Assembly (NCBI GenBank): GCA_964576925.1
Contig: CAZNWJ010000004.1
Span: forward strand, 55,218 to 119,217
Reading direction: 5' to 3'
DNA: 64,000 bases
From: an uncultured Ignavibacteria bacterium
GTDB taxonomy: Bacteria > Zixibacteria > MSB-5A5 > CAIYYT01
The position numbers and the translations under genes were made by a program. Of this stretch, positions 231-43,893 are shown one piece after another. Within the stretch, counting starts at the first letter, position 1; each line of letters begins with the position of its first letter. The notes beneath the pieces were generated by a model. That model was not told where the DNA came from, searched no databases, and saw only the letters and a list, made by a program, of their open reading frames with translations.

Positions 231-1937
231 ACGCGCATCGCCTTAGGACAAATCAATCCCACGGTCGGAGACTTCGCGGGAAACATCGAAAAGATTCTCG
301 GCTATGTCGCCGCCGCCGCCAAACTCAAATGCGACCTCGTGGCGTTTCCGGAATTGTCGCTCTGCGGTTATCCGCCGGAAGATCTGCTGCTGAATCGCAG
401 TTTCGTCGAAGCCAATCTCGAATATCTCAACAAACTGATCGCGCGCGGCAACGGCCCGGCGATTGTCTGCGGCTGGGCGGGTTCGGAGGGCACCAGCGTC
501 TTCAATTCGGCGGCAGTGATCAACAAACGCAAGCTGCTGCTGTCGTACGAAAAAGTCGCGCTGCCGAATTACGGCGTATTTGATGAAGAGCGCTATTTTC
601 AGCCCGGCTCCGAGATGCCGATATTGCGGCTGCGCAACACGCTGGTCGGGATCAATATCTGCGAGGATATCTGGATTTGTCCGGGCATCACTGAGCAACA
701 GGCGGCGCTGGGCGCGCGCGTGATCCTGAATATTTCCGCCTCGCCGTACCACGTGCACAAGGCGGAAGAGCGAATCGAGATGCTGCGCGACCGTGCGCTG
801 CGCAACAAGTGCCACGTGCTCTACTGCAACATGGTCGGCGGGCAGGATGAGTTGATCTTCGACGGTGCGTCGCTAGCGATCGACCCGAAAGGCAAGGTGA
901 TCGCGCGCGCGGAACTATTCAAAGAAGAACTGCTCGTTGTCGATATCGCCGAAGGCCCCAAACCGAACGGCGCGACTTTTGACCTGCTTAAACGCGCCGG
1001 CGCGAATGCGAATCAACAGTTTCCGATCCGCTACGCCGAAGTCGAATCGCAGGCGGCGACGACGCGTCGATCCGGAAAGCTCAAGGTCGCCAAGCGGCTT
1101 CCGGAAGAAGAAGAAGTTTTTCAGGCATTGGTGCTGGCGACGCGCGACTACGTCAGCAAGAACGGATTTAAGAGCGTGGTGATCGGCATGTCGGGCGGAA
1201 TCGATTCGGCTTTGACATCGGCTGTCGCGGTCGCGGCACTCGGAAAAAAGAATGTCCACCTGCTGTTTATGCCGTCGCGATTTACCTCCGAACTCTCACA
1301 TCGCGCCGCAGCCCGGCAGGCCAAATTGCTTGGCGTCGAGATGGATGACTTGCCGATTGTCGATCTGATCGACGATTACGCCGAACTGCTTAATCCCGTC
1401 TACGGCGATTGCACCGGCGGGCTGACCGGCGAAAACCTGCAGGCGCGCATTCGCGGCAATCTGCTGATGGCGTATTCGAACAAGTTCGGCGCGCTGGTGC
1501 TGAACACTTCGAATAAGTCGGAAGCTGCGGTAGGCTACACGACTCTTTACGGCGACATGGTAGGCGGATTCGCGGTATTGAAGGATATTCCCAAGACGCT
1601 GGTCTACAAAATCAGCAAGCATCTCAATCGCAAGCGCGAAACGATCGCGAAAGAAATCATCAAGCGACCACCGACAGCGGAATTGAAGGACAACCAACTC
1701 GACACCGATTCGTTGCCGCCGTACGAAGTGCTCGACGAAATCCTGCGGCTTTATGTCGAGCACGATACCGACGAACAAGAAATTGTGGCGGCCGGCTTTG
1801 ACCCGAAGATCGTGCATCGCGTGATTCGCATGGTGGGCGCCGCCGAGTACAAACGCCGCCAGTCGCCTCCGGGCGCCCGAATTACGCCGCGCGCCTTTGG
1901 CAAGGATCGGCGCTGGCCGATTACCAACAAATTCTGA
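231..1937 (+). CDS. nadE: Glutamine-dependent NAD+ synthetase (N-terminal CN-hydrolase domain plus C-terminal NAD synthetase domain)
   Basis: The C-terminal half carries the PP-loop SGGIDSALTSAV and the NAD-synthase fold. The N-terminal half is a carbon-nitrogen hydrolase domain (FPELSLCGYPPEDLL). Conservation (RIALGQINPTVGDFAGN) runs upstream of the first canonical start, GTG at 339. The codon at 231 is ACG and sits 10 nt after an AGGAG, so the start is uncertain and the safe call is 339..1937. Confidence 0.85.
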   Translation, partial: TRIALGQINPTVGDFAGNIEKILGYVAAAAKLKCDLVAFPELSLCGYPPEDLLLNRSFVEANLEYLNKLIARGNGPAIVCGWAGSEGTSVFNSAAVINKRKLLLSYEKVALPNYGVFDEERYFQPGSEMPILRLRNTLVGINICEDIWICPGITEQQAALGARVILNISASPYHVHKAEERIEMLRDRALRNKCHVLYCNMVGGQDELIFDGASLAIDPKGKVIARAELFKEELLVVDIAEGPKPNGATFDLLKRAGANANQQFPIRYAEVESQAATTRRSGKLKVAKRLPEEEEVFQALVLATRDYVSKNGFKSVVIGMSGGIDSALTSAVAVAALGKKNVHLLFMPSRFTSELSHRAAARQAKLLGVEMDDLPIVDLIDDYAELLNPVYGDCTGGLTGENLQARIRGNLLMAYSNKFGALVLNTSNKSEAAVGYTTLYGDMVGGFAVLKDIPKTLVYKISKHLNRKRETIAKEIIKRPPTAELKDNQLDTDSLPPYEVLDEILRLYVEHDTDEQEIVAAGFDPKIVHRVIRMVGAAEYKRRQSPPGARITPRAFGKDRRWPITNKF

Positions 1938-2046
1938 TTTGACAATTCACCCCTGTCTCTCCATTATCTTAGTCGATACTCAGGCTCTCTGTTACAGTTC
2001 GCAATTGAAGTTTTGTAGATAACCCTGTCTCTACGGAAGGAGTCCT

Positions 2047-2442
2047 ATGCTCAAGGAATTCAAAGAATTTGCGATGCGGGGCAACGTCGTCGACATGGCG
2101 GTCGGTATAGTTATCGGCGCGGCTTTCGGCAAAATCGTGTCGTCGCTGGTCGGCGATGTGATCATGCCGCCGCTCGGCGTCCTGTTGGGTGGTGTCGATT
2201 TCAGCAACCTGGCGATTACCCTGAAGGCGGCAACCGCGGAAGCTCCAGCGGTGGTCTTGTCGTACGGTAAGTTTATCCAGACCGTGGTGGATTTCATCAT
2301 CGTGGCCTTTGCGATCTTCATGGTGGTCAAGGCCATGAACACACTTAAGCGCAAGAAAGAGGAAGCTCCCGCGGCTCCGCCGGCTCCGAGCAAGGAAGAA
2401 ACCCTGCTCACCGAAATTCGCGACGCCTTGCGCCACAAGTAA
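2047..2442 (+). CDS. mscL: Large-conductance mechanosensitive channel MscL
   Basis: 131 aa with the N-terminus [35 protein letters not shown] and two TM helices, full-length MscL architecture. A GGAG RBS lies upstream. Confidence 0.95.
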
Positions 2443-2510
2443 TCGGGACCATCTCATGTCAGGATCGCAGGGATCCTGACCTCTGGGTCTGAATAGGCAT
2501 GCTCCTGTCA

Positions 2511-2550
2511 AAGTCCGGATGATTTTTTCATCCGGACTTTCGTTTTTTCG
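2511..2550 (+). terminator. Rho-independent terminator downstream of mscL
   Basis: Perfect 12-bp stem AAGTCCGGATGA / TCATCCGGACTT followed by TCGTTTTTTCG. Confidence 0.75.
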
Positions 2551-2754
2551 CACCCCAAAAACCACAGTTCACGTCGATGCGGCCGGCGCAAAAGCTTGTC
2601 GAATCACGACTTAAATTACCCAACATTCGCGCCTTTAATATTAGACAAAACATAAACAATATGAAGTTAGACATGAAAACTAGCTGGTGCATCCAGATGT
2701 TTTATAGACAGAAGTAAGACAGTGAATCAGAATTTGAGAATTCAGAGATAACAA

Positions 2755-2985
2755 GTGAAGGAGACAGAAATGAAAACACTCGATGTCATCGTCGCGGTCC
2801 TGCTCATCGTGGGCGGACTGAACTGGGGTCTGGTCGGCCTGCTGAACTTCGACCTCGTCGCCACTCTTCTAGGAGACGGCACGATACTCGCGAAGATCGT
2901 TTACGTCCTGGTCGGTTTGTCCGCAATCTACCAAGCCGCTGGATTCAAGGCGATCCAGCGTCGTTGGGGTGTGGTTACCGCCTAA
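2755..2985 (+). CDS. Small membrane protein, DUF378 family
   Basis: 76 aa with two TM segments and the DUF378-like motif GGLNWGLVGL. A GAAGGAG RBS precedes it. The start could instead be the ATG at 2770. Confidence 0.6.
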   Translation: MKETEMKTLDVIVAVLLIVGGLNWGLVGLLNFDLVATLLGDGTILAKIVYVLVGLSAIYQAAGFKAIQRRWGVVTA

Positions 2986-3081
2986 CTGGGCAGAGCATCT
3001 GCGCCGGACCGAGTTCGCTCTGTCCGGCGCCACAATAGATCAAGAGCAGAATAGACATATACAGGCAATAGGAGGAGAAAC

Positions 3082-3663
3082 GTGAACAAGAAAATTCCTG
3101 GACTACTGGCGGCGTTTGCCCTGATGGCTTCGCTCAACAGCCAATCAATCCTGGCTGACAATTGTGCGAGCGGTAAAGCAGAAGCCACAAGCAAGAAAAC
3201 AGGAGAAATCATGAAGGCGGGTGCCACGGAGAAAGCGCAGAAGGCGATGGACATCGTCGAAACCGCGGCTTCCGCCGGCAGTTTCAACACGCTGGTGGCA
3301 GCGGTGAAGGCAGCAGGATTGGTTGAGACGCTCAAGGGCGAAGGACCCTTCACTGTCTTCGCGCCGACCGATGAAGCTTTTGCCAAGCTGCCGAAAGGCA
3401 CTGTTGAAGCCCTTCTCAACGACAAGGCGAAGCTGACCAGCATCTTGACCTACCACGTCGTTGCGGGCAAGGTGATGGCGGCTGACGTCGTGAAGCTCAG
3501 CGAAGCCAAGACGGTCAATGGTCAGAGCGCCAAGGTCGTCGCCGGAAAAGACGGCGTGATGATTGACAACGCCAAAGTCGTCAAGACGGACATCACGACC
3601 TCGAACGGCGTGATCCACGTGATCGATACCGTGATTCTTCCCAAGGAAGATAAGAAGTCATAA
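3082..3663 (+). CDS. Secreted fasciclin (FAS1) domain protein
   Basis: GTG start 7 nt after a GGAGGAG RBS, with a signal peptide. FAS1 hallmarks: [30 protein letters not shown]. Confidence 0.85.
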
Positions 3664-3856
3664 TGACCGAGCTGAAGCAGACCGGACACCGTGCGACTCT
3701 ACCCTTGCTTCCACGATCGACTTCTGTCGTCGGTGTCCGCCTGTTTCGAGCAGATACATCGCCCGTAGCGGCCAGTGCCGAAGGGCAGCAGCAAACTTGA
3801 TACAGTAACAGTAACAGATCCGCGGAGAGCGGAGAAAAACAGGAGGAGAGAGAACA

Positions 3857-6361
3857 ATGTTGAAACTGAGATTTCTGGCGGTGTTTCTGGCGACGGTGTT
3901 CGCAATGCCGCTCGTAGCTCGGGCCGCCGATGCGCGCCTGCAGGTGATTCACAACGCTGCCGATCCGGCGGCGGCCGTGGTCGACATCTATGTTAATGAC
4001 GCACTTTTTGAAGATGATTTTGCTTTCCGGGAGGCCACCGAGTATCGCACCGTGCCGGCCGGCGTGCAATTGAATATCCAGATCGCGCCGGGCAACTCGA
4101 GTTCCTCGGCGGAGGCAATCGCCACGATCCCGGTAACTCTTACCGCGAATCGCACCTATGTTGCGATCGCCAACGGCGTGTTAGGTTCCGGTTTTGCCGC
4201 CAATCCTGACGGCGCAGCGATCGGTTTCCAATTGTTTGCGCGCGACGGACTGCGTGAAAAGGCCAACTGGAACCAGGTGGTTGATCTGATTGCGTTTCAC
4301 GGCGCGACCGATGCACCGACCGTTGACGTGCGCATCCGCAAGGGTGGAAAGACTCCGCTTTTCAATGACCTGAGCTATGGTGAATTCAGCGCTTATCGCC
4401 CGGTAGCGGCGCGCAAGTACATTCTCGACGTGACCCCCGGCAACGATGCCTCGACCGTGGTTGCCTCGTTTGAGGCAGATCTCAACGGTCTGAAGGGCGG
4501 CGCTGCCGTCGTGTTTGCCTCCGGATTCTTGAACCCGGCGGCCAACAACGGTGGTCCGGCCTTCGGTTTGTTCGCCGCGCTGCCGAATGGCGCCGTCGCG
4601 GCTTTGCCGGTAGTGGTGCCGACCGCGCGTCTGCAGGTAATTCACAATGCCGCCGATCCGGCTGCGGCGTCAGTCGATATCTACGTGAATGATAATCTTT
4701 TCGAGAACGACTTCGCTTTCCGCGAAGCCACCGAATTTCGCACGGTTCCCGCTGGTGTCCAGTTGAATATCCAGATTGCGCCGGGTAACAGCTCGTCGTC
4801 CGCGCAGGCGATTGCCACGATCCCGGTGACGCTTGAGGACGGTAAGACCTATGTCGCGATTGCCAACGGCGTCCTCGGTTCCGGTTTCGCCACGAATCCC
4901 GATGGCCGCAGCATCAGCTTCAGCCTCTTTGCCAAGGACGGCATTCGCGAGCGCGCTTCCTGGTTCTATCGCACGGATGTCATCGGATTCCACGGCGCCA
5001 CCGATGCGCCGAACGTTGACATCGTTGCGCGCGGCTGGCCGTTTGGTCCGGTTGTCAATAATGCCTCATACGGAGACTTCGGCGGCTACGCTTCACTGGC
5101 TCCGCGAAAGTACGTTCTGGATGTCACTCCCGGCGACGACAACAACACGGTCGTGGCTTCGTTTGAGGCGGATCTGACCGGGCTGAACGGTGGCTCGGCG
5201 GTGGTGTTTGCTTCGGGGTTCTTGAATCCTGCCGCCAACAACAATGGCCCTTCGTTCGGGCTGTTTGCGGCGCTGGCGAATGGCACGGTCGTTGCCTTCC
5301 CGGCTTACCAGGCCACCGCTCGCCTGCAGGTCATTCATAATGCCGCCGATCCGGCTGCGTCGGTTGTTGATGTCTACGTCAACGACGGCGCGACTCCTTT
5401 GATCGACAACTTCGCGTTCCGCACGGCGACGCCGTTTATCGATGTGCCGGCCGGAGTGCAGTTGAATCTCCAGATCGCCCCGGGCAATAGTTCGTCCTCG
5501 GCGCAGGCGATCGCGACGATCCCGGTAACTCTTGAGCCGAATCAGACGTATGTTGCTATCGCCAATGGCATCCTGGGTTCCGGCTTTGCGGCCAACCCGG
5601 ATGGCGAGGATATCGGCTTCAAGCTGTTCCCGGTTGATGGCGTTCTCGAAGAGGGCCGCTCGCGTTTAGGCGTGAACCTCATCGTGTTCCATGGCGCGAC
5701 CGATGCGCCGACAGTCGATGTCTTTGCGCGCCTCGGTAACTTCACCTATCGCGCGGTGAATGACCTGACCTATGGTGAATTCTCGGACTACAAGTTCTTC
5801 TTTGCGAGGAACTACACCTTGACCGTTACCCCGGGCAACAGCACGACGGGTGTCGCGTCCTTCACCGCCGATCTCAGCGGTCTGGGCGGCGGAGCAGCCG
5901 TAGTGTTTGCTTCAGGATTCCTGAATCCGGCGGCTAACAACAACGGTCCGGCGTTTGGGCTGTATGCGGCGCTGCCGAACGGCGCCGTGGTAGCTCTGCC
6001 GGCGGTTGCGCCGAGTGCGATCGTCGCCATCGACAACGAAGACGAGTTGACGGAGGGGAAGATCGAAGAGCTTGAGCGCGGTGCGACAGCTTTGCCGACC
6101 GATTTTGCCCTGAGCCAGAACTACCCGAACCCGTTCAATCCGACCACGACGATTTCCTTCGCCTTGCCGAAGAGCTCGCCGGTGACCTTGAGTGTATACA
6201 ACATTCTCGGGCAGGAAGTAGCGCGGCTGGTGGACGGACCGATGGCCGCCGGCACGCACCAGGTGACGTTTGAGGCCTCCAATATGGCTTCGGGGATATA
6301 CTTCTACCGCCTGCAGACTGACGGGTTCAGCGAGCAGCGCAAGATGGTGTTGATGAAGTAG
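3857..6361 (+). CDS. Large secreted repeat protein: three ~230-aa tandem repeats, each with two DUF4397-like modules, plus a T9SS C-terminal sorting domain
   Basis: Signal peptide. The three repeats begin ARLQVIHNAADPAA..VDIYVND and share ~80% nt identity. The C-terminus YPNPFNPTTTISFALPK...GIYFYRLQ...KMVLMK is a typical Por/T9SS CTD. Confidence 0.75.
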   Translation: MLKLRFLAVFLATVFAMPLVARAADARLQVIHNAADPAAAVVDIYVNDALFEDDFAFREATEYRTVPAGVQLNIQIAPGNSSSSAEAIATIPVTLTANRTYVAIANGVLGSGFAANPDGAAIGFQLFARDGLREKANWNQVVDLIAFHGATDAPTVDVRIRKGGKTPLFNDLSYGEFSAYRPVAARKYILDVTPGNDASTVVASFEADLNGLKGGAAVVFASGFLNPAANNGGPAFGLFAALPNGAVAALPVVVPTARLQVIHNAADPAAASVDIYVNDNLFENDFAFREATEFRTVPAGVQLNIQIAPGNSSSSAQAIATIPVTLEDGKTYVAIANGVLGSGFATNPDGRSISFSLFAKDGIRERASWFYRTDVIGFHGATDAPNVDIVARGWPFGPVVNNASYGDFGGYASLAPRKYVLDVTPGDDNNTVVASFEADLTGLNGGSAVVFASGFLNPAANNNGPSFGLFAALANGTVVAFPAYQATARLQVIHNAADPAASVVDVYVNDGATPLIDNFAFRTATPFIDVPAGVQLNLQIAPGNSSSSAQAIATIPVTLEPNQTYVAIANGILGSGFAANPDGEDIGFKLFPVDGVLEEGRSRLGVNLIVFHGATDAPTVDVFARLGNFTYRAVNDLTYGEFSDYKFFFARNYTLTVTPGNSTTGVASFTADLSGLGGGAAVVFASGFLNPAANNNGPAFGLYAALPNGAVVALPAVAPSAIVAIDNEDELTEGKIEELERGATALPTDFALSQNYPNPFNPTTTISFALPKSSPVTLSVYNILGQEVARLVDGPMAAGTHQVTFEASNMASGIYFYRLQTDGFSEQRKMVLMK
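3938..6003 (+). repeat. Three tandem intragenic nucleotide repeats (~688-bp period) inside the DUF4397 protein gene
   Basis: The units start near 3938, 4626 and 5317, each with the motif CGYCTGCAGGTNATTCAYAAYGCYGCCGATCCGGC. Confidence 0.8.
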
Positions 6362-6889
6362 GAAATTCTGATTTGCTCGCCTCGGTGCGAGCGTTAGAGA
6401 GTCATCTCACTTCCTTTGTTTACGTTTCGCCTGAAGGCGATCCGGTGTTGCTCGGGTCGCCTTCGGCGCTTTTGGCTCATTTCTGAGCGCCCGATCGATC
6501 GAGCTACGAGGAAAGAACAGCGGGTGGAGTCAATCACAAACCGCGGAGTTGTGAGCACTCGCCTGTTGCAGTTCTACCGGGCGAGTGCCTGTGATATGTT
6601 GGCCACCCTAACCGCAGGGACAAGCCCTGCGGCTACATTCGTTCCCCTACTAATAGTCGCGTTTGGATTTATGGAGTGAATCGCTACAAAAAGGGCGGTC
6701 GAATTGAAGTGATCTCGGTGCGAGCGAGAGTGTTAGCATTCATGTTTGAAGGCCGATTTTGCGGGACAGAATGCAGTTAAGAGGGCGGGCGTCGTGAATC
6801 GCATTTGAGAGGGAATAGAGGAAGATTATGAGCAGGAACGGGTTTGCTTCGACGCGATATTCGCGATTGAGATGTCGGCAGTTTGCTCG

Positions 6890-7615
6890 CCCCTCGCATT
6901 GACAGCGCAAGAAAAGACACGGCGCAACGATCTTTAGGGGGAGATCCTGAGCAAGGTAGTGTCAAATCCCTGCGGGTGGATCGGAGGCATTTGGGCTGTA
7001 AGCGAAATCGGGAGAGGTGAGCGTGTTCGAACCGAGAAGAGACGGGATTTGACCTACGATTCTATTGAAGTGAGATTGCTTCGTCGCGGCAGAGTGCGAC
7101 GATAATCGCAGATCGTTCGCTCCTCGCGATGACGGTGCAGAAGAGAAGGAATCTGATTGGCGTCAGGTCGCCTCGCGGGTGGGAAGGGTAGTTCTTCCAG
7201 ATTGTATCGGGCGCGAGAAGACCTGACGCAACGATCTTTGGGGGAAGATACGGTGTCAGGATCGCGGGGATCCTGACCTACAGGCTGACGCAACGAATTC
7301 TAGGGGGACTATACAGATCGAGGAATTGTCAAATCCCTGCGGGTGGGTCGGAGGCATTTGGGCTGTAAGAGTAGTTGGGGAAGGTGAGCGTATTCGAGCT
7401 TAAGAGATTCGGGATTTGACCTACGATTCTTTTGAAGTGAGATTGCTTCGTCGCGGCAGAGTGCGACGACGATAATCGCAGATCGTTCGTTCCTCGCGAT
7501 GACGGTGCAGAAGAGATTGAGCCCAGAGAGCGTCAGGTCGCCTCGCGGGTGGGTAGAGTAGTTCTTCCAGCTTTTATCGGGCGCGAGAAGACCTGACGCA
7601 ACAGTCCATAGCTTG
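6890..7615 (+). repeat. About 2.3 tandem copies (367-bp period) of a composite hairpin-rich non-coding element
   Basis: The inverted-repeat (IR) hairpin GTCAAATCCC...GGGATTTGAC lies at 6961-7053 and 7328-7420. The box CGTTCGCTCCTCGCGATGACGGTGCAG is at 7118 and 7486. The hairpin GCGTCAGGTC...GACCTGACGC is at 7160-7235 and 7524-7600. The GACGCAACGATCTTTRGGGGGA motif recurs at 6925, 7225 and 7290. Confidence 0.9.
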
Positions 7616-7648
7616 AAGCAAAAGCGGCGCACCGATGGTGCGCCGCCA
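7613..7648 (-). terminator. Rho-independent terminator of the pepP-accB-pilT operon
   Basis: On the minus strand, a GGCGGCGCACC/GGTGCGCCGC stem is followed by TTTTGCTTC, directly after the pilT stop. Confidence 0.65.
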
Positions 7649-7688
7649 TTGTAATGCAGATAGTACGCTATGATTGCGTTGCAACCGC

Positions 7689-8798
7689 CTAATGCGTGCC
7701 CTGGATGGTAGTCCAGGAGGTATCGGAGGAGCTGGTGATACCCTTGACGCGCAGATCGAAGTCGTCGGGGTTGGAAGCGTTGCGCATGGCATCCTCGTAA
7801 GTGATATGCCCGGCGCGATAGAGTTTCATGATCGACTGGTCGAACGACTGCATGCCGTACTGCACCTGGCCGGCTTCGATAAACTCGATAATCGACGAGG
7901 TCTTGATCGGATCGATGATGCAATCGCGGATGGCGCCGGTGGTGACGGCTACTTCGACTGCCGGAATTCGGCCTGGCATATCGGCGCGCGGGAGCAGACG
8001 CTGGCAGACGATCGCCTTCATGGTGCCGGCCAGCAGCAAACGGATTTGCTGATGCTGGTGCGGCGGGAAGAAGGAGATGATACGGCTGATGGTTTCGACG
8101 ACGTTCATCGTGTGGAGCGTGGTCAAGACCAGATGGCCGGTATCGGCGGCGGCGAGGGCAATGCCCATCGTCTCGGCGTCACGAATTTCACCGATCAGGA
8201 TCACATCCGGGTCCTGACGAAAAGCGTGGCGCAGCGCGGCGGCGAAGCTCTCGGAGTCGGCGCCAACCTCGCGCTGGCAGATGATCGATTTCTTGTCGCG
8301 ATAGATGTATTCGATCGGGTCTTCGATGGTGACGATGTTTTCCGCCCGGTGCGAGTTAATGTACTCGATGACGGCGGCCAGCGAAGTCGACTTGCCGGAA
8401 CCGGTGGTGCCGGTGACGATAATCAGGCCGCGGCGGGTTTCGCAGAGATCGGAAATGACCTCGGGCAGGTTGAGATCCTCGAAAGAGGGCACCAGCGTGT
8501 TGACGGCACGGATCGCGATGCCGGGAGTACCGCGCTGGCGATAAAGATTGATACGGAAACGGCCGAGCTTGGTGACCGAAAGGGCCAGGTCCATTTCGCT
8601 GCGCGCGGCAAACCGTTTCTGCTGTTCGGGAGAAAGAATTTGGGAGACGATTTCGGTCATCGACTCCTTGGAGATCGGTTCGGTATTGATGACGACCAGT
8701 TTGCCGTGGACGCGCAGGGTCGGTTTGATCCCCACACGCAGGTGCAGGTCGGAGGCGGCTTGATGCTGCATCTCCACCAGCATGTCACGCAGGTTCAT
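7689..8798 (-). CDS. pilT: Type IV pilus retraction ATPase PilT
   Basis: N-terminus MNLRDMLVEMQHQAASDLHL. Walker A TGTTGSGKST. The PilT/PilU secretion-ATPase core is conserved. Confidence 0.95.
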   Translation of the reverse strand: MNLRDMLVEMQHQAASDLHLRVGIKPTLRVHGKLVVINTEPISKESMTEIVSQILSPEQQKRFAARSEMDLALSVTKLGRFRINLYRQRGTPGIAIRAVNTLVPSFEDLNLPEVISDLCETRRGLIIVTGTTGSGKSTSLAAVIEYINSHRAENIVTIEDPIEYIYRDKKSIICQREVGADSESFAAALRHAFRQDPDVILIGEIRDAETMGIALAAADTGHLVLTTLHTMNVVETISRIISFFPPHQHQQIRLLLAGTMKAIVCQRLLPRADMPGRIPAVEVAVTTGAIRDCIIDPIKTSSIIEFIEAGQVQYGMQSFDQSIMKLYRAGHITYEDAMRNASNPDDFDLRVKGITSSSDTSWTTIQGTH

Positions 8799-8857
8799 CG
8801 GTCACTCCTTATGGTTGTTCCGGAATCCTGCTGGTGCCGCGGGCGGAGTGCGCGCGC

Positions 8858-9376
8858 TTACGCCGGCTGGACGAGGAAAAGCACCTGACCGAACTCCACC
8901 GGAGAGGCGTTTTCGACCATGCGTTGGACAAGCACGCCGTCGAATTCCGCTTCGATTTCGTTCATCAGTTTCATCGCCTCGATGATGCAGACCGTCTGGC
9001 CCTTCGTGACCCGCTGGCCAACGTCGACGAACGCGGGCGCACCGGGCTCAGGAGAGGTGTAGAAGGTTCCAACCATAGGCGATTTGATTTCCTTGCCTGC
9101 CGGAGCCGCCACGGGGGGCGGAGCTGCAGCAGGTTGCGGAGCGGGCGCGACCGGGGCGGCAGCGACGGGCGCTGCAGCGGCCGGTTCCAGCGGCGGCAAG
9201 GTCGGCGCCACCTGCGCTTTGGGAATCGTGATCGTCGAGCCGTGGCCGTTACCGTTGGTTCCGGTCGTGCTACGCTTGACGATGGTTACATTGCTGAACA
9301 TCGTTTTGATGTTGAGCGACTCGATTTCCGACGATTCCACCAACTTCACCAGTTTCCGGATAGTTGATTCTCTCAT
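8858..9376 (-). CDS. accB: Acetyl-CoA carboxylase biotin carboxyl carrier protein (BCCP)
   Basis: Biotinyl-lysine motif [11 protein letters not shown] in a C-terminal lipoyl-like domain, preceded by an Ala/Pro-rich linker. Confidence 0.9.
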
Positions 9377-9436
9377 TACGTTCTATGACCGGGTTGAATC
9401 AACCCTACTCCTGTTTATCGAGTTTTCGAGCAAAAA

Positions 9437-10507
9437 CTAAAGCTCCAGCAACGACTTGTCCGCGCGATTCATTACGCGGCAACCGTTTCTGGTAATCACC
9501 ACATCATCTTCCACCCGTACGCCGCCCCAGCCGTCAAGGTAGATACCGGGCTCGACCGTCACGACCATCCCCGGCTGTAAGACAGTGTCCGACAGCGGCG
9601 ACAAGCGGGGTTCTTCGTGAATCAGCAGGCCGATCCCATGACCGAGGCCGTGGCCAAAGTTTTTCGCGTAGCCCGCCTTGGCGATGATATCGCGCACGTG
9701 TTTATCGACAGCCGACCCTTTCAAACCGGCGCGCGCCTTTTTGGTTCCGGCGATTTGCGCCTTGAGGACGAGGTTGTAGATCTTCTTCTGCTGCGCGGAT
9801 GCCTTGCCGACGACCACCGTGCGCGTGATGTCGGAATGATAGCCGCCGTAGATAGCGCCGAAATCAAGGGTAACGAATTCCCCCTTCTTGATGACTTTGG
9901 AAGAAGCGCGGCCGTGCGGCAGCGCCGAGCGATAGCCGGAGGCGATGATTGTTTCGAACGACGGGTCTTCGGAGCCGAGCATCTTCATTTGATATTCGAG
10001 TTCCGCCGCGACTTCGTTTTCGCGCACGCCGGGCTTGATGATCTGCAAAATGCGTCCGAAGGCGACATCGGCAATATCGACGGCCTTCTGGATTTTCTTG
10101 ATCTCGTCGGGTTCCTTGACTGAGGCGAGCGCCTCGACCATACCGCCGGTCGGTGCCAACAGCGCTTGCGGCAGCAGCGCGCGAATCATGTTGAGATTCT
10201 TAACGGTCAGATAAGCTTCCAGGTAGCCGACGCGCAGATTCTTTTGGAGCAGCCGCTTGATTTTCGGGATCTCGGTGTACAGCTCGCGCTGGGCGATCAG
10301 GATCTTGGCGCCCTTGACTTCAGAGCGCACCTGCGCCTTGTAGCGAAAATCGGTAATGAAGTGCGCTTCATTGGTGAAAACAACGAGCAACCCGTTCGAG
10401 CCGGAATAGCCGCAAAGGTATTTGACCTGCGACAGCTCGCTGACGAGGAGGCAGTCGAGATTGCTATCCTTGAGCAGTGCTTGTAGTCTCTTGATTCGTG
10501 CTTGCAT
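9437..10507 (-). CDS. pepP: Xaa-Pro aminopeptidase / M24 family metallopeptidase
   Basis: Creatinase-type N-terminal domain plus a pita-bread C-terminal domain. Metal-ligand region HGLGHGIGLLIHEEP. Confidence 0.9.
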   Translation of the reverse strand: MQARIKRLQALLKDSNLDCLLVSELSQVKYLCGYSGSNGLLVVFTNEAHFITDFRYKAQVRSEVKGAKILIAQRELYTEIPKIKRLLQKNLRVGYLEAYLTVKNLNMIRALLPQALLAPTGGMVEALASVKEPDEIKKIQKAVDIADVAFGRILQIIKPGVRENEVAAELEYQMKMLGSEDPSFETIIASGYRSALPHGRASSKVIKKGEFVTLDFGAIYGGYHSDITRTVVVGKASAQQKKIYNLVLKAQIAGTKKARAGLKGSAVDKHVRDIIAKAGYAKNFGHGLGHGIGLLIHEEPRLSPLSDTVLQPGMVVTVEPGIYLDGWGGVRVEDDVVITRNGCRVMNRADKSLLEL

Positions 10508-10513
10508 AAGCTC

Positions 10514-11125
10514 CTAACCACACAGTTTCAGTTTTTCGTAGATCCGGGGGTCGCCCGGGGAGTCTTGCAGCAGGCGGGCATAGATAGCACGCGCCTTGTC
10601 TTTATACCCCTGTTGGGCATAAAGGTCGGCTGCTGTTTCCGTCCAGAGAATCTCGTGTTCGGGCCGATCGACCGACTCCTGGTAGCGTCCCAGTTCCTCC
10701 AGGCGCGCTGTTATGCCGGGGGATCCGGGTTCCAGTTGGGCAGCCTGCAGATAGTATTTCAGCGCCTCAGCCAATTGACCGGCCTGCCGAAACAAGTCGC
10801 CCAATTTCACCAAGGTCAGCGGATTATCGGCATCCCGCTTCAGCGCCTCCAAGTAAGCAAAGGTGGCCGATACCGACTTGCCGCGCCGAATATAGAGGTC
10901 ACCCAGCACTTGGAGCCCGTTGGCGTAATTGGGGTATTGCCGAATTCCTGCTTGAAGCAGGTCGTAGGCGACATCCAATTCGCCGGCGTCGATCATAATG
11001 GCGGCCTGACGCGCGAAGTCATACCCGATCTTGGTGTCGCCAGAGGCCACTTCTGTGGTCTCAATTTCAGAGGCAGACTGCTCCCCCTGCATAGAGACCT
11101 TGCCTTTGCGGGCAGAATACTCCAT
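10514..11125 (-). CDS. TPR repeat protein
   Basis: Several TPR-like helical repeats (YANGLQVLGDLYIRRGK, LVKLGDLFRQAGQLAEALKYY). First gene of the minus-strand operon. Confidence 0.7.
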   Translation of the reverse strand: MEYSARKGKVSMQGEQSASEIETTEVASGDTKIGYDFARQAAIMIDAGELDVAYDLLQAGIRQYPNYANGLQVLGDLYIRRGKSVSATFAYLEALKRDADNPLTLVKLGDLFRQAGQLAEALKYYLQAAQLEPGSPGITARLEELGRYQESVDRPEHEILWTETAADLYAQQGYKDKARAIYARLLQDSPGDPRIYEKLKLCG

Positions 11126-11491
11126 GACCCTCCCACGACTTAATCCGAATCACGATACGGACTTTGGCGGGATTTGGTCAAGAAAAAAACTGGGGGAGGC
11201 CCGGGAGGTGTGCCGCGAAATCCGCATTTGAGCACCGATAACTACATTGTCGCAGGGGTGAAACGATTTGTAGAATGATCGTGCAGAGCGGTCAAAATGC
11301 CATCCTGACAGCATAACCGCTTACGGGACAGGGTGATTCCAGCCGCGATTGTGATGCGGGAACTGACTGGTGATTCAGTTTCGGCGCGATCGGACGCGTG
11401 ATAACCGGCCAAGATTCCGCTTGTCGGAACTGGTGCCGATGATATATTTTATAAGTTTTGGTAGTATTACGTACGGAGGAATAGCTACGCC

Positions 11492-13312
11492 ATGATGCAA
11501 GTCTTACGGAATAACACGCAGATCATCATCTGGATACTGGTGATTGCGTTTGTGGGCACGATCATCTTCGCCTGGGGCATGGATATCGGCGGCGGCAATG
11601 TCGGCGGCATGGCCACGAACGTGGTCGGCAAGGTTAACGGCCGCGAGATACCGTTGCAGAACTTCGGCGCCCTCGCCGAGCAGTTTATCGACCAGGAGCG
11701 GCAGCGGACGCCGGACAAGGACTTTACCGAGTCTGACTATCGCAATGCGCGCCGCCAGGCCTGGAACGAATTCGTCAACAGCTACTTGCAGCAGGACCAG
11801 ATCGAAAAGCTGGGAATTACCTTGACCGACGCTGAAGTGGTCGATTTCATTCGCCGCTTCCCGCCGCAGGAAGTGCAGCAGATTGAGGTCTTCCAGACCA
11901 ACGGTCAGTTTGATTATAATAAGTACCTCTCAGCCATGGGCGACCCGCAGTATGCCGAGTTGTGGCGTCAGGTCGAAGCACTCGTCAAACCGCGGCTGAC
12001 GACCTTCAAGTTGCAGGAGTATGTCACTTCGATGGTGCGCGTTTCGGACGGTGAGTTGCAGGAGCAGTACCTGCGCGACAATGAAAGAATCCGCGTCGAT
12101 TACGCGCTGGTGCCATATTCCAAATTCCCCGTGGGCGCGAACGAGATCGACTCGAACGAAGTTCGCAGCTACTATAACGACAACCCGGACGAGTTTCGCG
12201 AAGCGGAGCAGGTTTACTATACGACCTATCGCTTGAGCAAGGAAGCTTCGACTGAAGACTTCGCCGCCGCGCTGGAAAAGGCGAACCAAGTGAAGAAGCT
12301 ACTTGACGAAGGCGGCGATTTCGCGACGCTGGCAAATGAGTACACAGAAGATCCCTCGGGCAAGGGCAAGGGCGGCGCGCTGGGATATTTCGCCCGTGGC
12401 GCGATGGTGCGCGAGTTTGACTCGGCGGCATTTGCCATGAGCGACGGCGATATCTCCGTGCCGGTGAAGACGCGATTTGGCTACCATATCATCTACCGCA
12501 CAGGCCAGCGCAAGACCAATGAATTGGAGGAGGTGGAAGCCTCGCATATCCTGTTCCGCCCCGAGATGTCGGAAGGCACGGTGCAGTCGCTTGAAGCAAA
12601 GATGATGCGGCTGAAGTCTGAAGGAAACGCTACGAACGCCGAGACCCTGGCGAAGGAACTCGGAATCACGCAGGAGACTCAGCGCAAGGTTGGCCGCGAC
12701 CAACCGATCGGCAGTTTCGGCAAGGACGCGATGTTGGAGAAGTTCCTGTTCGAAGCCTCCGACGGCTCGTTCTCGGAACTGATCGATCGTAGCGAAGCAT
12801 TCTATCTCGTGCGCAAGGACCGGCTGAAACCGGCGGGTTTGGCAGCCTTCGAAGACGTCTACCCGATCATTACCCGCAAACTGATCGACAAGCGGCAGCG
12901 GCAATTGACCCTGGCCGTCGCGCAGCGCATCCACAGTTCCGTCATGGCGGGCAGTTCGCTGGCTGATGCCGCTAAGGCTGCGGGGCATGAGGTCGTCGAG
13001 TCTGGGTTCTTTGCCCGCAGCGGGCGGTTGCCGGGAATGGGTAATGACGCGACTTTGATCGGTACGGCGTTTTCGCTCTCGGAAGGCAAGCGGTTTTCGC
13101 AGCCGGTGTTAACAAATAATGGCGCTGCAGTGATCGAGTTCAAGGAACGCACGGCCGCCAGCCTCGACGGCTTCGCCGCCGAACGCGACACGCTGCGGAC
13201 CAAGGCGTTGCAGACGGCGCAAAGCGCCTTCTGGGACAAATGGTTTACGGAGCTGATCAACAAGGCTGAGATCGAGGATAACCGCAAGGTGATTTTCGGC
13301 GAAACGATGTAG
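11492..13312 (+). CDS. ppiD: Periplasmic chaperone PpiD-like peptidyl-prolyl isomerase (parvulin domain)
   Basis: N-terminal signal-anchor TM helix. Parvulin PPIase domain (GGDFATLANEYTEDPSGKGKGGALGYFARGAMVREFDSAAFAM...FGYHII). SurA/PpiD-like chaperone domains. Confidence 0.8.
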   Translation: MMQVLRNNTQIIIWILVIAFVGTIIFAWGMDIGGGNVGGMATNVVGKVNGREIPLQNFGALAEQFIDQERQRTPDKDFTESDYRNARRQAWNEFVNSYLQQDQIEKLGITLTDAEVVDFIRRFPPQEVQQIEVFQTNGQFDYNKYLSAMGDPQYAELWRQVEALVKPRLTTFKLQEYVTSMVRVSDGELQEQYLRDNERIRVDYALVPYSKFPVGANEIDSNEVRSYYNDNPDEFREAEQVYYTTYRLSKEASTEDFAAALEKANQVKKLLDEGGDFATLANEYTEDPSGKGKGGALGYFARGAMVREFDSAAFAMSDGDISVPVKTRFGYHIIYRTGQRKTNELEEVEASHILFRPEMSEGTVQSLEAKMMRLKSEGNATNAETLAKELGITQETQRKVGRDQPIGSFGKDAMLEKFLFEASDGSFSELIDRSEAFYLVRKDRLKPAGLAAFEDVYPIITRKLIDKRQRQLTLAVAQRIHSSVMAGSSLADAAKAAGHEVVESGFFARSGRLPGMGNDATLIGTAFSLSEGKRFSQPVLTNNGAAVIEFKERTAASLDGFAAERDTLRTKALQTAQSAFWDKWFTELINKAEIEDNRKVIFGETM

Positions 13313-13337
13313 GCTCCAGTAGAACAGCAAGAGCTCA

Positions 13338-13376
13338 AAGCGCGGTGATCGAACTGATCACCGCGCTTCTTTCTTG
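13338..13376 (+). terminator. Rho-independent terminator after ppiD
   Basis: Stem AAGCGCGGTGATC/GATCACCGCGCTT followed by CTTTCTT. Confidence 0.7.
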
Positions 13377-13521
13377 GACAAACTCCTCCCGTTGGCCGTT
13401 TCAATCTGCACCGGCCAAACTCCCCAATCGAGTGCCGTCACTCGAAAAGATTTTCCGCTTTTTGTCCCTCAAGGTTTGTCAGCCTGTTCCGATATGAAAA
13501 ATACTGAACTTCGGTTCACGG

Positions 13522-14637
13522 ATGAAACCCCAACCGGAAACAGGATGTACCGCTTTGAACACAATGTTGTCGGCAGAAGAGCGCATAGTTGCTTCAAACT
13601 CGGAACGACTTGACTGGAGTGAACTGCTCAGTGGTCTGGCGCGGCACTTGCCCGAGTCAGAGTTAGCAACAGCTATCGATCAGCGCTGCGGCGCGCTCTT
13701 GCGTGTTGCCGGTATCGAGCTGCAATCCTTGGCGACTGACTCTGAACATTCAGAGGCGGGCTCACTACTCGAAGTCAATTTTGACAGCCGCGGTCAGGAG
13801 CGCCGCTTCAGGCTGATGCCGACATTGGGTGAGTTTTCAACGGCGGCGCGTGAAGCGATTCTCGATACCGTCCACGTCACTCTCAGCGACCTGCTTGCCT
13901 CCGTCAATAATCGACTTCAGGCAAACGCGGCAGAAGCAATTTCCGACACCTTTAGCGCCGTCCGCGCAGCTCCAGCACCGACAAGTCTTCCGGATGATCT
14001 GCTTTCGGCGTTCGTGCACAAGTTGCGCAACAATCTGGGCGCGACAGTAACCGCCGCCAGCCAGCTGAACGAGATGCTGGCGGACAAAGCCGGCGCCGAT
14101 GCCGCGATGTTGCTCGGAATCATCGAATCAGCGACGGAAGCGCAGCGGCGTTTGATCGACCGCTTCGTGCTCTTGTCGCGTCCACTGGTGGTGCGTTTGG
14201 CCCGCGTAGAGGTGGCGCCGATCCTGCGCTCGATCCTGCAGCGCTATGCCGCCATCAACGGCAATCAGATCGAAATCGAAGGCCTGGAGCGCGAAGTGGC
14301 AATCGAAACTGACCGCACGCTTTATGCCTTCATCTTGAACGAGCTAGTGGAGAACGGTCTCGAAGCCAGCGCGCAGCACCGCCTCGTGATCAAGGTTGCG
14401 AATCGCGACCACTATTTCGAAATGTCTTTCCGCAACGACTGCGGCGATCTGCCGACCTACGTGTCGGACAGCTTGTTCAAACCGTTCTTTACGACCAAGA
14501 CCAGCCGGGCCGGCCTGGGGCTCACGATCGCGCAGCATTATGCGCGACTGCTCGGCGGTACGATTCGCCATCGCTGCGTGCGCGGCGAAGCGGAGTTTAC
14601 AATCGCAATTCCCCTCGGCAACGAATTGAACAAATGA
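13522..14637 (+). CDS. Sensor histidine kinase (apparently cytoplasmic)
   Basis: H-box FVHKLRNNLGA. HATPase_c with N, G1 and G2 boxes (ILNELVENGLEAS, FKPFFTTKTSRAGLGLTIAQ). No clear TM segment. The start could be the downstream ATG near 13564. Confidence 0.8.
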   Translation: MKPQPETGCTALNTMLSAEERIVASNSERLDWSELLSGLARHLPESELATAIDQRCGALLRVAGIELQSLATDSEHSEAGSLLEVNFDSRGQERRFRLMPTLGEFSTAAREAILDTVHVTLSDLLASVNNRLQANAAEAISDTFSAVRAAPAPTSLPDDLLSAFVHKLRNNLGATVTAASQLNEMLADKAGADAAMLLGIIESATEAQRRLIDRFVLLSRPLVVRLARVEVAPILRSILQRYAAINGNQIEIEGLEREVAIETDRTLYAFILNELVENGLEASAQHRLVIKVANRDHYFEMSFRNDCGDLPTYVSDSLFKPFFTTKTSRAGLGLTIAQHYARLLGGTIRHRCVRGEAEFTIAIPLGNELNK

Positions 14638-14663
14638 TGATAGGTTCTGGAAAGGAACGACCC

Positions 14664-16025
14664 ATGCCCAGCTTGTTAATTGTAGATGACGATCGCAATC
14701 TCTGCAATGCGCTGAAACTGCTCCTGGTGCGCCATGGACATATGGTGGAGTGCGCGTTTACAGCCGCTACCGCCCAGGAATGGCTCGAGAAGAAGTTCTT
14801 CGATCTGGTGATAACCGACCTGCGATTGGTGGATGGGCTTGGGATTGACGTGATCCGCACCGCCAAGCGCGTCATGCCGGAGACCGAAGTGATCATGCTG
14901 ACCGGATTCGGCTCGGTAGATACCGCCGTCGAAGCGATGCGTTCCGGCGCGTTCGATTACATGACCAAACCGTTCAATGAAGCCGAGATGCTGTTGACGG
15001 TTGAAAAAGCGCTCTCGCAGAAGAAAATGAAGAGCGAATTGAAGCACCTGAAACTCGCCTTTGCGGAGACCTACAACTTTGACTCAATCATCGGTTCTTC
15101 ACCGGCGATCAAGAGCGTTATCGACGTGATCAAGCAGGTAGCTTCTCAGGAGATCAACGTTCTGATCACCGGCGATTCAGGCACGGGCAAGGAACTGATT
15201 GCCAAGGCGATCCACAACAATTCGCCGCGTCGCGAGGGCAAGTTCGTCGCGATCAATTGTTCGGCAATGCCGGAACTGCTGTTAGAATCAGAATTGTTCG
15301 GGCACGTAAAAGGCGCGTTTACTTCGGCGACGGCCAACAAGAAGGGCTTGTTCGAAGAGGCCGGCGGCGGGACGATCTTTCTCGATGAAGTCGGCGATAC
15401 CTCGGCATCGCTGCAGGCCAAGCTGTTGCGCGTTCTTCAGGAAGAAGAAATCCGGCCGGTCGGCTCGAACGAGACATTCAAGACTAACGTGCGCGTGATT
15501 GCCGCGACGAACAAGAATCTCGAACAAATGGTGGCGCGCGGGAAGTTCCGCGAAGACCTCTATTACCGGCTCAACGTTATCTCGCTGCATCTGCCGTCTC
15601 TGGCGGAGCGGCGCGAGGATATCGTGCCGTTGGCGCAACACTTCCTGGCGAAGTACTGTGAGCACTTCAACAAGACGATGAAGCGTTTCTCCCAGGCTGC
15701 AGGTGACAAATTGATGGCACACGAATGGCCGGGAAACGTCCGCGAGTTGGAGAACACGATCAAGCGCGCAGTAGCGCTTTCGGTCAGTGATATTATCGAT
15801 GTTGAGAATCTCTTCCTCATGAAGCCGATGCCGAAGCGGGAGGAGCGGGGCGATCGCCCGGGAATGCCCGGCGACACCACCTCGCTGGAAGATATGCAGA
15901 AAGAGCATATCGTGCGCAGTTTGCGCGAGAACCGGTGGAACTACTCGGTGACAGCGGGCAAGCTCGGAATTGGGCGGACGACTCTGTGGCGCAAGGTGAA
16001 GAAGTTCAACATCGTGAAGGAATAG
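14664..16025 (+). CDS. Sigma-54-dependent response regulator (NtrC family: receiver, AAA+ sigma-54 activator and Fis-type HTH domains)
   Basis: Receiver domain (LIVDDDRNL...D). Walker A GDSGTGKE, the GAFTSA loop and an arginine finger. C-terminal HTH. A GGAAAGGA RBS is upstream. The ORF also opens at 14634. Confidence 0.9.
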   Translation: MPSLLIVDDDRNLCNALKLLLVRHGHMVECAFTAATAQEWLEKKFFDLVITDLRLVDGLGIDVIRTAKRVMPETEVIMLTGFGSVDTAVEAMRSGAFDYMTKPFNEAEMLLTVEKALSQKKMKSELKHLKLAFAETYNFDSIIGSSPAIKSVIDVIKQVASQEINVLITGDSGTGKELIAKAIHNNSPRREGKFVAINCSAMPELLLESELFGHVKGAFTSATANKKGLFEEAGGGTIFLDEVGDTSASLQAKLLRVLQEEEIRPVGSNETFKTNVRVIAATNKNLEQMVARGKFREDLYYRLNVISLHLPSLAERREDIVPLAQHFLAKYCEHFNKTMKRFSQAAGDKLMAHEWPGNVRELENTIKRAVALSVSDIIDVENLFLMKPMPKREERGDRPGMPGDTTSLEDMQKEHIVRSLRENRWNYSVTAGKLGIGRTTLWRKVKKFNIVKE

Positions 16026-41616: not shown

Positions 41617-41796
41617 CGGGATCTCCTTATGTCAGGAAAGTTGCGTAATGGGTTACCAATAAATATGAGACGCAGTGAGGCGTGCGTCGTTTAATCGCAT
41701 ACGGTTGGGCAGTTTAGGTTACGAGATTGGGCGGGAAGAAGTTGCGGGGAATGTCATTCCCGCGCAGGCGGGAATCCAGGGTTTTTGGACAGCGAG

Positions 41797-42115
41797 TCGT
41801 TCGCTCCTCGCAATGACAATAGGTGGGGCAGGGGCTGGGTTTGCCTGCCCGGGCGGATGACGGAACAGGTGCAGATCAGGTGTCAAATCCCTGCATCACG
41901 CAATATCGGTGCGGAAGACGCACGTCTGTCGGGAACAGGCGGATCGAGGCGGTGTGAGGAGAGACGGGATTTGACCTACTGGCTACGAAATCACGTCGAA
42001 GCGAGAAACCCGACACTCGCTTGCAAATCACGTACCGATGTCGGGTTTCTCATTCCGCGCGCACTAGTCCGGTTACTTGCGGTGGATTTACGCGCGGAAT
42101 TCGGATCCTGACTTG
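41797..42115 (+). repeat. Composite hairpin-rich element, copy B1 (modules M1-M4)
   Basis: M1 CGTTCGCTCCTCGCAATGAC plus the GGGCAGGGGCTGGGTTTGCCTGCCCGGG hairpin. M2 IR GTCAAATCCC at 41883 ... GGGATTTGAC at 41975. M3 GAGAAACCCGACAC...GTCGGGTTTCTC at 42003-42051. M4 TTCCGCGCGC...CGCGCGGAATT at 42053-42101. Confidence 0.85.
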
Positions 42116-43810: not shown

Positions 43811-43893
43811 AACTACGGAACATCCATATGGAATACACGCGTCTGTCGGACAGGTAGATTGTGGTGGCGTTAGAAGAAGCGAGATTTGACCGA

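Follow-up and report, generated by a model that had tools for sequence, protein, structure and literature searches.

The 64,000-nucleotide stretch of contig CAZNWJ010000004.1 analysed here (referred to throughout as the window), from an uncultured bacterium labelled Ignavibacteria and placed in the Zixibacteria by GTDB, contains a gene-free gap of 1327 nt at positions 6362-7688 that holds an array of short repeated modules. It is the largest gap between credible genes of the window, as the initial annotation of this DNA had stated, the runner-up measuring 679 nt. The gap is flanked by two convergent genes: on the plus strand the gene for an 834-amino acid DUF4397 protein sorted by the type IX secretion system (T9SS; 3857-6361), and on the minus strand pilT (7689-8798). 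The plus strand is G-rich, with a GC skew of +0.2 to +0.33 across 6700-7600. Six open reading frames (ORFs) of 48-204 amino acids lie inside the gap; none has a Pfam match at E<=1, and none is kept in the closest relative, L001, where they are broken by stops and a 2-nt indel. A tblastx comparison of the gap with all collected loci gave, besides L001 and the window itself, one weak match only (L084, E=0.004), and no similarity was found to plasmid and phage records. The initial annotation had seen no credible ORF here, and this was borne out: the weak L084 match apart, no protein-coding gene with homologues was found to span the gap by Pfam or tblastx. A reading of the gap as a decayed gene was rejected on the same two grounds, the near-empty tblastx result and the lack of Pfam matches.

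The region is composed, mosaic-like, of four or five short modules (Table 1), which are found again in intergenic clusters elsewhere in this genome and in related Zixibacteria. In the module M2, a 73-nt interior is enclosed by inverted 10-bp arms that match exactly (GTCAAATCCC/GGGATTTGAC), and CTAC always follows; on the minus strand, the tagged end of the module reads 5'-GTAG-GTCAAATCCCG... M1 is a bipartite box (ATTGCTTCGTCGC ... CGCTCCTCGCRATGAC), the long form of which consists of GAGATTGCTTCGTCGC, an insert of 31-35 nt and then GCTCCTCGCRATGAC. H3 is a 70-nt hairpin, and the DNA fold of its first copy has an energy of -21.9 kcal/mol (z=-4.8 against shuffled sequence), while single M2 copies reach folding z-scores of only -0.2 to -2.5. 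To these are added short GTAG-tagged palindromes and a 22-nt tail motif, which occurs three times (at 6921, 7225 and 7287) against zero expected by chance. A covariance model of M2, termed R1, was built from 14 copies and run without filters on the window; it matches the short palindrome at 7255-7281 only with the interior deleted (7251-7285, 15.9 bits). At the site of the 6612-6636 palindrome, L001 retains CTAC and the stem is partly broken.

Most of these elements had been picked out in the initial annotation. The two M2-type hairpins (6961-7053 and 7328-7420) were recovered with exact arms, and the threefold recurrence of the motif was confirmed. The M1-type boxes, originally placed at 7118 and 7486, and the long hairpins, originally at 7160-7235 and 7524-7600, lie within a few bases of these positions (boxes at 7118-7133 and 7488-7503, hairpins at 7160-7229 and 7530-7599), with a degenerate box at 6888-6903 in addition. 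The perfect stems described upstream, GCTCGCCTCGGTGCGAGC (6375-6392) and CCGCAGGGACAAGCCCTGCGG (6612-6632), are likewise present, and the latter carries the CTAC tag.

Table 1. Features of the gap between the T9SS-sorted DUF4397 protein gene and pilT, in window coordinates.
Position	Strand	Feature	Evidence or remark
6375-6392		Perfect stem GCTCGCCTCGGTGCGAGC	
6427-6476	+	Long GC-rich hairpin CGCC-U-GAAGGCGAUCCG ... CGGGUCGCCUUC-GGCG, then CTTTTGG	Sequence, minimum-free-energy fold
6612-6636	-	GTAG-tagged short palindrome CCGCAGGGACAAGCCCTGCGG (6612-6632); GTAG + CCGCAGGGCTTGTCCCTGCGG, 8-bp stem, 5-nt loop	Perfect inverted repeat, then CTAC
6843-6903	+	Degenerate M1: TTTGCTTCGACGC, 33-nt insert, GCCCCTCGCATTGAC; box at 6888-6903	Fuzzy M1-arm search, L001 alignment; opens the leading partial unit
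6905-6942	+	Remnant of the H3 3' arm and tail motif GCGCAAGAAAAGACACGGCGCAACGATCTTTAGGGGGA; H3 5' arm and loop deleted	Direct-repeat families D4 and D5, motif search
6961-7057	+	M2 copy 1, arms GTCAAATCCC/GGGATTTGAC; hairpin 6961-7053, then CTAC	R1, 72.5 bits
7076-7133	+	M1 long form: GAGATTGCTTCGTCGC, 31-nt insert, GCTCCTCGCGATGAC; box 7118-7133	97-100% identical to the 7443-7503 copy
7160-7229	+	H3 copy 1 (GCGTCAGGTC ... GACCTGACGC)	Inverted repeat I1; fold
7223-7246	+	Tail motif CTGACGCAACGATCTTTGGGGG: final bases of the H3 3' arm and downstream tail	Direct-repeat family D5, motif search
7255-7281	-	Short GTAG-tagged palindrome, GTAG + GTCAGGATC-CCCGC-GATCCTGAC, 23 nt (7255-7277)	Tail-motif copies on both sides
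7285-7308	+	Tail-motif duplicate CTGACGCAACGAATTCTAGGGG, in register with the motif at 6921	Direct-repeat family D5, motif search
7328-7424	+	M2 copy 2; hairpin 7328-7420, then CTAC	R1, 74.3 bits
7443-7503	+	M1 long form, 34-nt insert; box 7488-7503	Same position as the single M1 of L001
7530-7599	+	H3 copy 2	Same position as the single H3 of L001
7623-7647	-	pilT intrinsic terminator, 11-bp stem and T-run	Terminator scan; conserved in L001; outside the repeat array

Part of the mosaic is repeated in tandem. A BLAST search of the region against the window shows that 6923-7232 recurs at 7289-7602 with 85.7% identity over 314 nt (E=1e-100), and the start-to-start spacings in a seed-and-extend comparison are 367 nt, then 370 nt. 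Unlike these two methods, Tandem Repeats Finder missed the 367-nt repeat. By self-alignment, the array consists of two full units and a degenerate leading partial unit (an M1-like element at 6843-6903 and the 3' part of H3 with the tail motif at 6905-6942), and the initial description of about 2.3 copies of a 367-bp unit is a fair one; an identity of 'about 90%', also given there, was slightly high. Modules are ordered M1''-H3 remnant-tail motif-M2 in the leading partial unit, M1-H3-tail motif-short palindrome-tail-motif duplicate-M2 in the first full unit, and M1-H3-pilT terminator in the last.

The two full units have diverged at about 14% of their positions and share no exact run longer than 38 nt. 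Identity between them is 100% for the M2 arms, 97-100% for M1, 94% for H3 and 79.5% for the M2 interior, and 50-62% for the inter-module spacers compared in ungapped register; owing to a 1-nt indel, the 50% value is too low and rises to about 70% on alignment. Each window unit is only 76-78% identical to the single unit of L001. Since the window units are closer to each other than to that unit, both arose after the split from this closest sequenced relative. The initial view of an old duplication and not an assembly artefact is plausible given the divergence of the units, the duplication being younger than the split from L001.

The modules of the gap recur, in shuffled order, in intergenic clusters at positions 1-138 and at 41.8-42.1, 43.4-43.9 and 44.7-45.1 kb. 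The latter three consist of M2 and M1 together with a G-rich box (Gbox) and a double hairpin (M3), which in the cluster designated D has 16-bp inverted ends (GTAGGTCGGGTTCCGA ... TCAGAACCCGACCTAC); the beginning of the window holds two more copies of M2 type. The M2 arm is seen 11 times in the window against 1.2 expected, and the M1 box six times against 0.25 expected. Full or partial M2 matches to R1 are found only at 34-138, 6957-7061, 7324-7428, 41878-41983, 43573-43676, 43813-43881 and 44721-44824. There are seven or eight M2-type and six M1-type copies in five clusters, every one of them intergenic, counts that refer to the 64-kb window and not to the whole genome. A covariance search from the M2 hairpins, suggested with the initial annotation, therefore places M2 copies in these intergenic clusters only, and the kinship proposed there between the gap and the elements at 41.8-45.1 kb is real. 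The order of modules is M1-Gbox-M2-M3 in two clusters and M2-M1-Gbox-M3 in a third, and these differences from cluster to cluster imply that the modules are independent pieces and not parts of one fixed gene.

Beyond the window, a metagenome scan for both M2 arms gave 63 matches, of which most were palindromes unrelated to M2 or repeats of low complexity. The true relatives among these matches all came from one metagenome, WBZO01, in which further copies lie on six contigs (L097, L105, L108, L110, L111 and L141). On L097, two M2 copies stand in opposite orientation, 25 nt apart. Viral contigs, scanned for GGGATTTGACCTAC as a negative control, yielded 120 isolated chance matches, in no case with the partner arm, and a full-text literature search for the M1 sequence returned unrelated primer matches only.

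The array varies among relatives. The closest of them, L001, is a metagenome-assembled genome (MAG) labelled Ignavibacteria, 88-92% identical in DNA and syntenic over window positions 1070-14794; among its pilT neighbours in the scan the label Zixibacteria predominates, and several carry the label Ignavibacteria. No compared locus is identical to the window, and exact look-ups of the PilT and T9SS-sorted proteins retrieved no record. In L001, the gap is about 720 nt long and holds one M1 and H3 unit beside the pilT terminator, with no M2 and no short palindrome. In L002 and L003, whose PilT proteins are 96% and 90% identical to that of the window, only 70-80 nt follow pilT before another gene begins; the T9SS-protein gene of the L003 genome is followed by a different gene, and in L149 that gene is followed by about 70 nt. 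Among close relatives, then, the cluster is present, absent or different in size, and the syntenic comparison that had been put forward as a check finds the array absent or much smaller at the same place. The initial suggestion of a hotspot where the 41.8-45.1-kb family amplifies was essentially right: the modules are the same, and the site is smaller or empty in relatives. On L105, a related metagenome contig, the pilT operon directly adjoins the abhydrolase gene that lies at 42.3 kb in the window, with M1-Gbox-M2 between the two. The breakpoints implied by this gene order coincide with the repeat clusters designated A and B, so that repeat clusters sit at gene-order breakpoints.

Read on the minus strand, the tagged palindromes consist of an unpaired 5'-GTAG and a stem-loop. 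Within the window, CTAC stands at 10 of 272 flanks of perfect inverted repeats with arms of at least 8 nt, where 0.70 would be expected (about 14-fold, P=3.5e-9). Nine of these ten tags are on the plus strand, and all tagged palindromes of the gap are co-oriented. This is the anatomy that defines the GTAG superfamily of repetitive extragenic palindromic (REP) sequences, as described by Di Nocera et al. (2013, PMC3733652): their stems measure 6-13 bp, GTAG being left unpaired at one end, their loops mostly 2-4 nt and up to 27 nt, and the whole element 20-40 bp; a genome holds several families, which favour positions between ORFs that converge or are co-directional. In the gap, GTAG beside a stem of 6-13 bp is found at 6612-6636, 6961-7057, 7255-7281 and 7328-7424. 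The palindromes at 6612-6632 (21 nt) and 7255-7277 (23 nt) fall within the size range of GTAG REPs, which M2 (93 nt) and H3 (70 nt) exceed. The tandem units, with a period of 367-370 nt, and their position between convergent ORFs (3857-6361 on the plus strand, 7689-8798 on the minus strand) are also as in GTAG REPs.

Palindromes headed by GTAG and GTCAA.../GTCGGGTT... occur in the Zixibacteria loci L006, L007, L016, L020, L034, L042, L097, L105, L108, L111, L122 and L141, so that the family spans genera, and in none of 28 Gemmatimonadota loci. In these Zixibacteria loci, the heads belong to simple 22-26-nt palindromes or to long forms of 70-93 nt; short forms with M2 arms give matches of 34-36 nt in L006, L007, L042 and L122. 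Across copies, the M2 arms show three compensatory changes, including A-T to G-C and T-A to A-T. Taken together, these features suggest that the gap is probably a lineage-specific cluster of REP type, belonging to the GTAG-tagged superfamily, which lies between convergent genes and has been enlarged by local tandem duplication.

Several observations weigh against the interpretation as a REP cluster. The interior of M2 measures 71-74 nt in 14 of 14 copies, its length fixed and its sequence free, whereas the loops of GTAG REPs do not exceed 27 nt; the M1 insert is similarly held to 31-35 nt in all long-form copies, and short-form interiors in distant Zixibacteria are just 3-5 nt long. A fixed interior length despite free sequence is not obviously explained by simple drift. 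Neither M1 nor H3 carries a GTAG tag (H3 is followed by AAC), M1 is not a palindrome, and the co-orientation of all copies in the gap is unlike the alternating REPs of the classical bacterial interspersed mosaic elements (BIMEs) of Escherichia coli. Moreover, the persistence of modules at 94-100% identity against spacers at 50-62% after the duplication points to constraint or gene conversion acting on the modules, and hence to a possible cellular function. A cognate REP-associated tyrosine transposase (RAYT) was also looked for. One RAYT was identified in a Zixibacteria MAG (L023, 305-838; 111 bits against NF047646, cut-off 80), which counts in favour of a REP cluster in showing that the phylum has such an enzyme; it is flanked, however, by a different palindrome, GTTCCCAAACTSSAGTTTGGGAAC. 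Searches by tblastn with E. coli RayT and the L023 protein found nothing else in the window or in about 1.1 Mb of collected loci, and in the same material no RAYT was found that is flanked by GTAG-GTCAA palindromes. REPtrons, in which a RAYT gene is flanked by its own REPs, may be missing from genomes that hold REPs (PMC3733652). In view of the long interiors of fixed length, the conservation of modules above spacers and the co-orientation, the locus is classed as one that works like a REP cluster and as a variant of that kind, and not as a member of a described family.

How such a cluster might form can be outlined by analogy with REP/RAYT systems (PMC2817692, PMC8266576). The palindromes would spread as folded single-stranded DNA hairpins. 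A RAYT whose gene lies elsewhere in the genome, an HUH enzyme of the IS200/IS605 type, would recognise them, with GTAG serving as recognition and cleavage tag. This enzyme is the weak link of the scheme, the one Zixibacterial RAYT found having a different palindrome at its flanks. A single-strand mechanism that is coupled to replication would be in keeping with the strong bias of the tags towards one strand. Modules brought to lie side by side could then undergo slippage or unequal recombination and be duplicated as a whole block, here M2-M1-H3 of about 367 nt. Since the two convergent genes have these hairpins in their 3' regions, transcription may also extend into the hairpins, which might then stabilise 3' ends or serve as terminators, a role that has been proposed for other REPs.

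Other explanations have to be set against that of a REP cluster. M2, and M3 with it, could be miniature inverted-repeat transposable elements (MITEs) that derive from a DDE-type insertion sequence and were moved via their terminal inverted repeats. The exact 10-bp terminal repeats and the unstructured interior of M2, some 73 nt long and of fixed length, the 16-bp inverted ends of M3 in cluster D and a presence that varies between relatives would all suit such elements. We nevertheless consider this origin unlikely, since the flanks of 14 M2 copies show no target-site duplication, the CTAC tag is one-sided and asymmetric in a way that MITE ends are not, the same arms occur as simple 22-26-nt palindromes in other Zixibacteria, and no related full-length insertion sequence was seen. 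The first three of these points also set M2 apart from the MITE-like ERIC/IRU, Correia and RPE repeats, which lie between genes, measure about 90-150 nt, end in inverted repeats and occur in many copies whose presence differs from strain to strain. The initial annotation had instead raised the possibility of a non-coding RNA (ncRNA) gene array, which would comprise two or three copies of a structured RNA gene, one to each unit of about 367 nt. The gap is indeed gene-free and rich in hairpins, its plus strand is G-rich, as is often the case in transcribed structured RNAs, H3 folds well beyond shuffled sequence (z=-4.8), and the modules are conserved above the spacers between units. Searches for RNA genes speak otherwise and make this quite improbable. 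Rfam 15 gave no match at gathering score on the whole window and only noise at E<=10 (E 1.5-9.8, far below gathering scores), ARAGORN found no tRNA or tmRNA in the window, and a promoter scan found no sigma-70-like site. The RNAalifold consensus of 14 M2 copies comprises the terminal stem only, with no common structure in the interior, and single copies have the low folding z-scores given above; between subfamilies, M2 interiors are 50-65% identical, against 52 +/- 5% for shuffled sequence. The M1 insert folds into different hairpins in the window and in L001, module order varies among clusters, L001 has one truncated unit without M2, and the other relatives have none.

The fixed length and free sequence of the interiors are what would be expected if the interior were a functional spacer or guide, and there is a slim chance that M2 and the long form of M1 constitute a distinct class of element, with conserved ends and a free-sequence interior of 71-74 or 31-35 nt, and are not inert REP derivatives. 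The interior could then be a distance measure for a protein that binds both ends, or a target-specifying sequence in RNA or single-stranded DNA, and single genes that can be exchanged, for example the abhydrolase gene, could lie between elements of this kind. Co-oriented M1-M2 modules have been considered as site-specific recombination sites similar to integron attC, bracketing exchangeable gene cassettes, which would make the array in the gap a series of empty ones. The M2 copies at 41882, 43577 and 44725, which share one orientation, do each bracket a single gene, the abhydrolase gene is patchily distributed and stands on a Logan contig both ends of which carry the 22-nt M1-insert sequence, and conserved ends, conserved length and a free interior are shared by M2 and attC sites. 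By inspection, however, the arms GTCAAATCCC/GGGATTTGAC do not fit the R''/R' consensus (RYYYAAC ... GTTRRRY), the M2 interior is not an imperfect palindrome, the two copies on L097 are oppositely oriented and the bracketed genes lie on both strands. Nor is there an integrase among the Pfam families listed for window ORFs (49 ORFs compared, best 25 of 94 families), a list that is not an exhaustive search. We therefore regard an attC-like system as very improbable. The last alternative concerns the sequence itself, in that the tandem copies could be an assembly artefact, for instance two strain variants of one unit joined during metagenome assembly. The sequence does come from a metagenome-assembled genome, the region is repeat-rich and L001 has a single unit. 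Judged from the sequence, an artefact is unlikely, indeed the most remote of the alternatives: the units diverge by about 14% with indels, one of them has an extra 62-nt insertion, their longest shared exact run of 38 nt is below the final k-mers assumed to be typical of assemblies, ahead of the two full units stands a third, partial and degenerate one, and each unit is further from L001 than from the other.

Placed beside known systems, the REP-type cluster shares with the GTAG superfamily (Di Nocera et al., 2013, PMC3733652) and with REPtrons (Nunvar, 2010, PMC2817692; Corneloup, 2021, PMC8266576) a GTAG beside an 8-10-bp stem, the existence of several families per genome, an intergenic position between convergent genes, compensatory changes in the arms, units reiterated in tandem with flanking DNA, and a presence that varies between close relatives. 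It differs in its fixed 71-74-nt M2 interior, as against loops of 2-27 nt in described families, in the co-orientation of all copies in the gap, and in that no cognate RAYT was found in the window or collected loci. The BIMEs of E. coli are comparable as mosaics in which REP-type palindromes and other short conserved motifs cluster in a single intergenic region, frequently beyond the 3' ends of genes; their REPs alternate in orientation with regular spacing (PMC2817692). The palindromes of the gap do not alternate and all have the same orientation, and M1 and H3 are unrelated to BIME motifs. A further comparison is with REPINs, credited to Bertels and Rainey in 2011, which reportedly consist of two complete REPs in inverted orientation and are thought to be the replicative unit moved by RAYT. 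M2 resembles these in its length of about 90-110 nt and in its two conserved ends, inverted to each other, which enclose a spacer of constant length but lower conservation. In contrast to REPINs, in which each copy would presumably have its own palindrome and tag, M2 has a single tag, arms that are not palindromic alone and a largely unpaired interior.

A REP cluster with local tandem duplication is a familiar route of bacterial intergenic growth, and as found it matters little. It does extend GTAG-tagged palindromes to the Zixibacteria, a phylum known only from metagenomes and for which no paper in the searched literature mentions REPs, and supports the notion of an old and widespread repeat type. 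Since breakpoints of gene order and single genes of patchy distribution are found where the clusters lie, the repeats may influence how genomes of this lineage are rearranged; that they disrupt short-read assemblies is certain. Described REP families do not accommodate the long-interior forms, in which the length is fixed and the sequence free.

The RAYT of L023 (150-1080) has homologues of 57-66% identity in Scalindua, KSB1 and one further MAG (L145-L148, around 2700-3900). All of them are flanked by the palindrome GTTCCCAAACTSSRGTTTGGGAAC plus GAAACTCTGTTTC, a pairing with inverted-repeat ends that is kept across phyla. The M1 box was considered as the REP of this RAYT clade and rejected, the homologues in Scalindua, KSB1 and the further MAG being flanked by a different palindrome.

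The abhydrolase gene of the window (42296-43357) is bracketed by co-oriented M1-Gbox-M2 clusters (41617-43900). It has one close homologue in the protein collection, at 84% identity, and none appeared from the L001 MAG; on L105, the region concerned is 2100-3900. On the Logan contig L150, which carries the gene, the same 22-nt M1-insert sequence stands at start and end, as if between direct repeats. In these respects, the gene behaves like a cassette-type accessory gene. The approximately 34 kb that separate pilT and the abhydrolase gene in the window (7689 versus 41617-42295) are elsewhere or inverted in L105 (3400-4103). On L108 (7950-10350), a 16S rRNA gene (minus strand, about 8225-9790) lies between co-oriented M2 copies, with a long-form M1 after the second. 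Beside cluster D lies an ORF of 187 amino acids on the minus strand (45010-45573) that is conserved in L105, where it adjoins the aconitase gene. The M3 repeat encodes roughly its final 17 codons; the ORF has no match in Pfam or NCBIfam and is not a transposase by these.

A second copy of the short palindrome lies at 2458-2480, directly after a small gene (2048-2440) and before a conserved terminator hairpin (2510-2540). It is followed by CTCT and hence has no CTAC/GTAG tag, and it is absent from the matching site of L001. The sole array called by Tandem Repeats Finder, at 16102-16287 (99-nt period, 1.9 copies, 74% matches), lies inside a minus-strand ORF (16099-17202); this repeat is coding and has no connection with the array in the gap.

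The first 250 or so nucleotides of the gap (6361-6610) are 92.5-95% identical to L001, which is the level of coding DNA, as compared with 67-78% for other intergenic stretches. They contain several hairpins, one of which (6555-6588) has a compensatory A-T to G-C change, and no conserved ORF; L149 lacks this stretch after its orthologous gene. A 3' untranslated region with terminator, or a small RNA, could lie here. From its predicted fold, the hairpin at 6427-6476 is probably the intrinsic terminator of the T9SS-sorted DUF4397 protein gene, and it is not among the sites listed by a simple terminator scan. Upstream of the same gene, the non-coding segment 3670-3869 is 98.5% identical to L001, making it the best-conserved 200 nt of non-coding DNA in the compared 13 kb; it is probably a promoter or leader.

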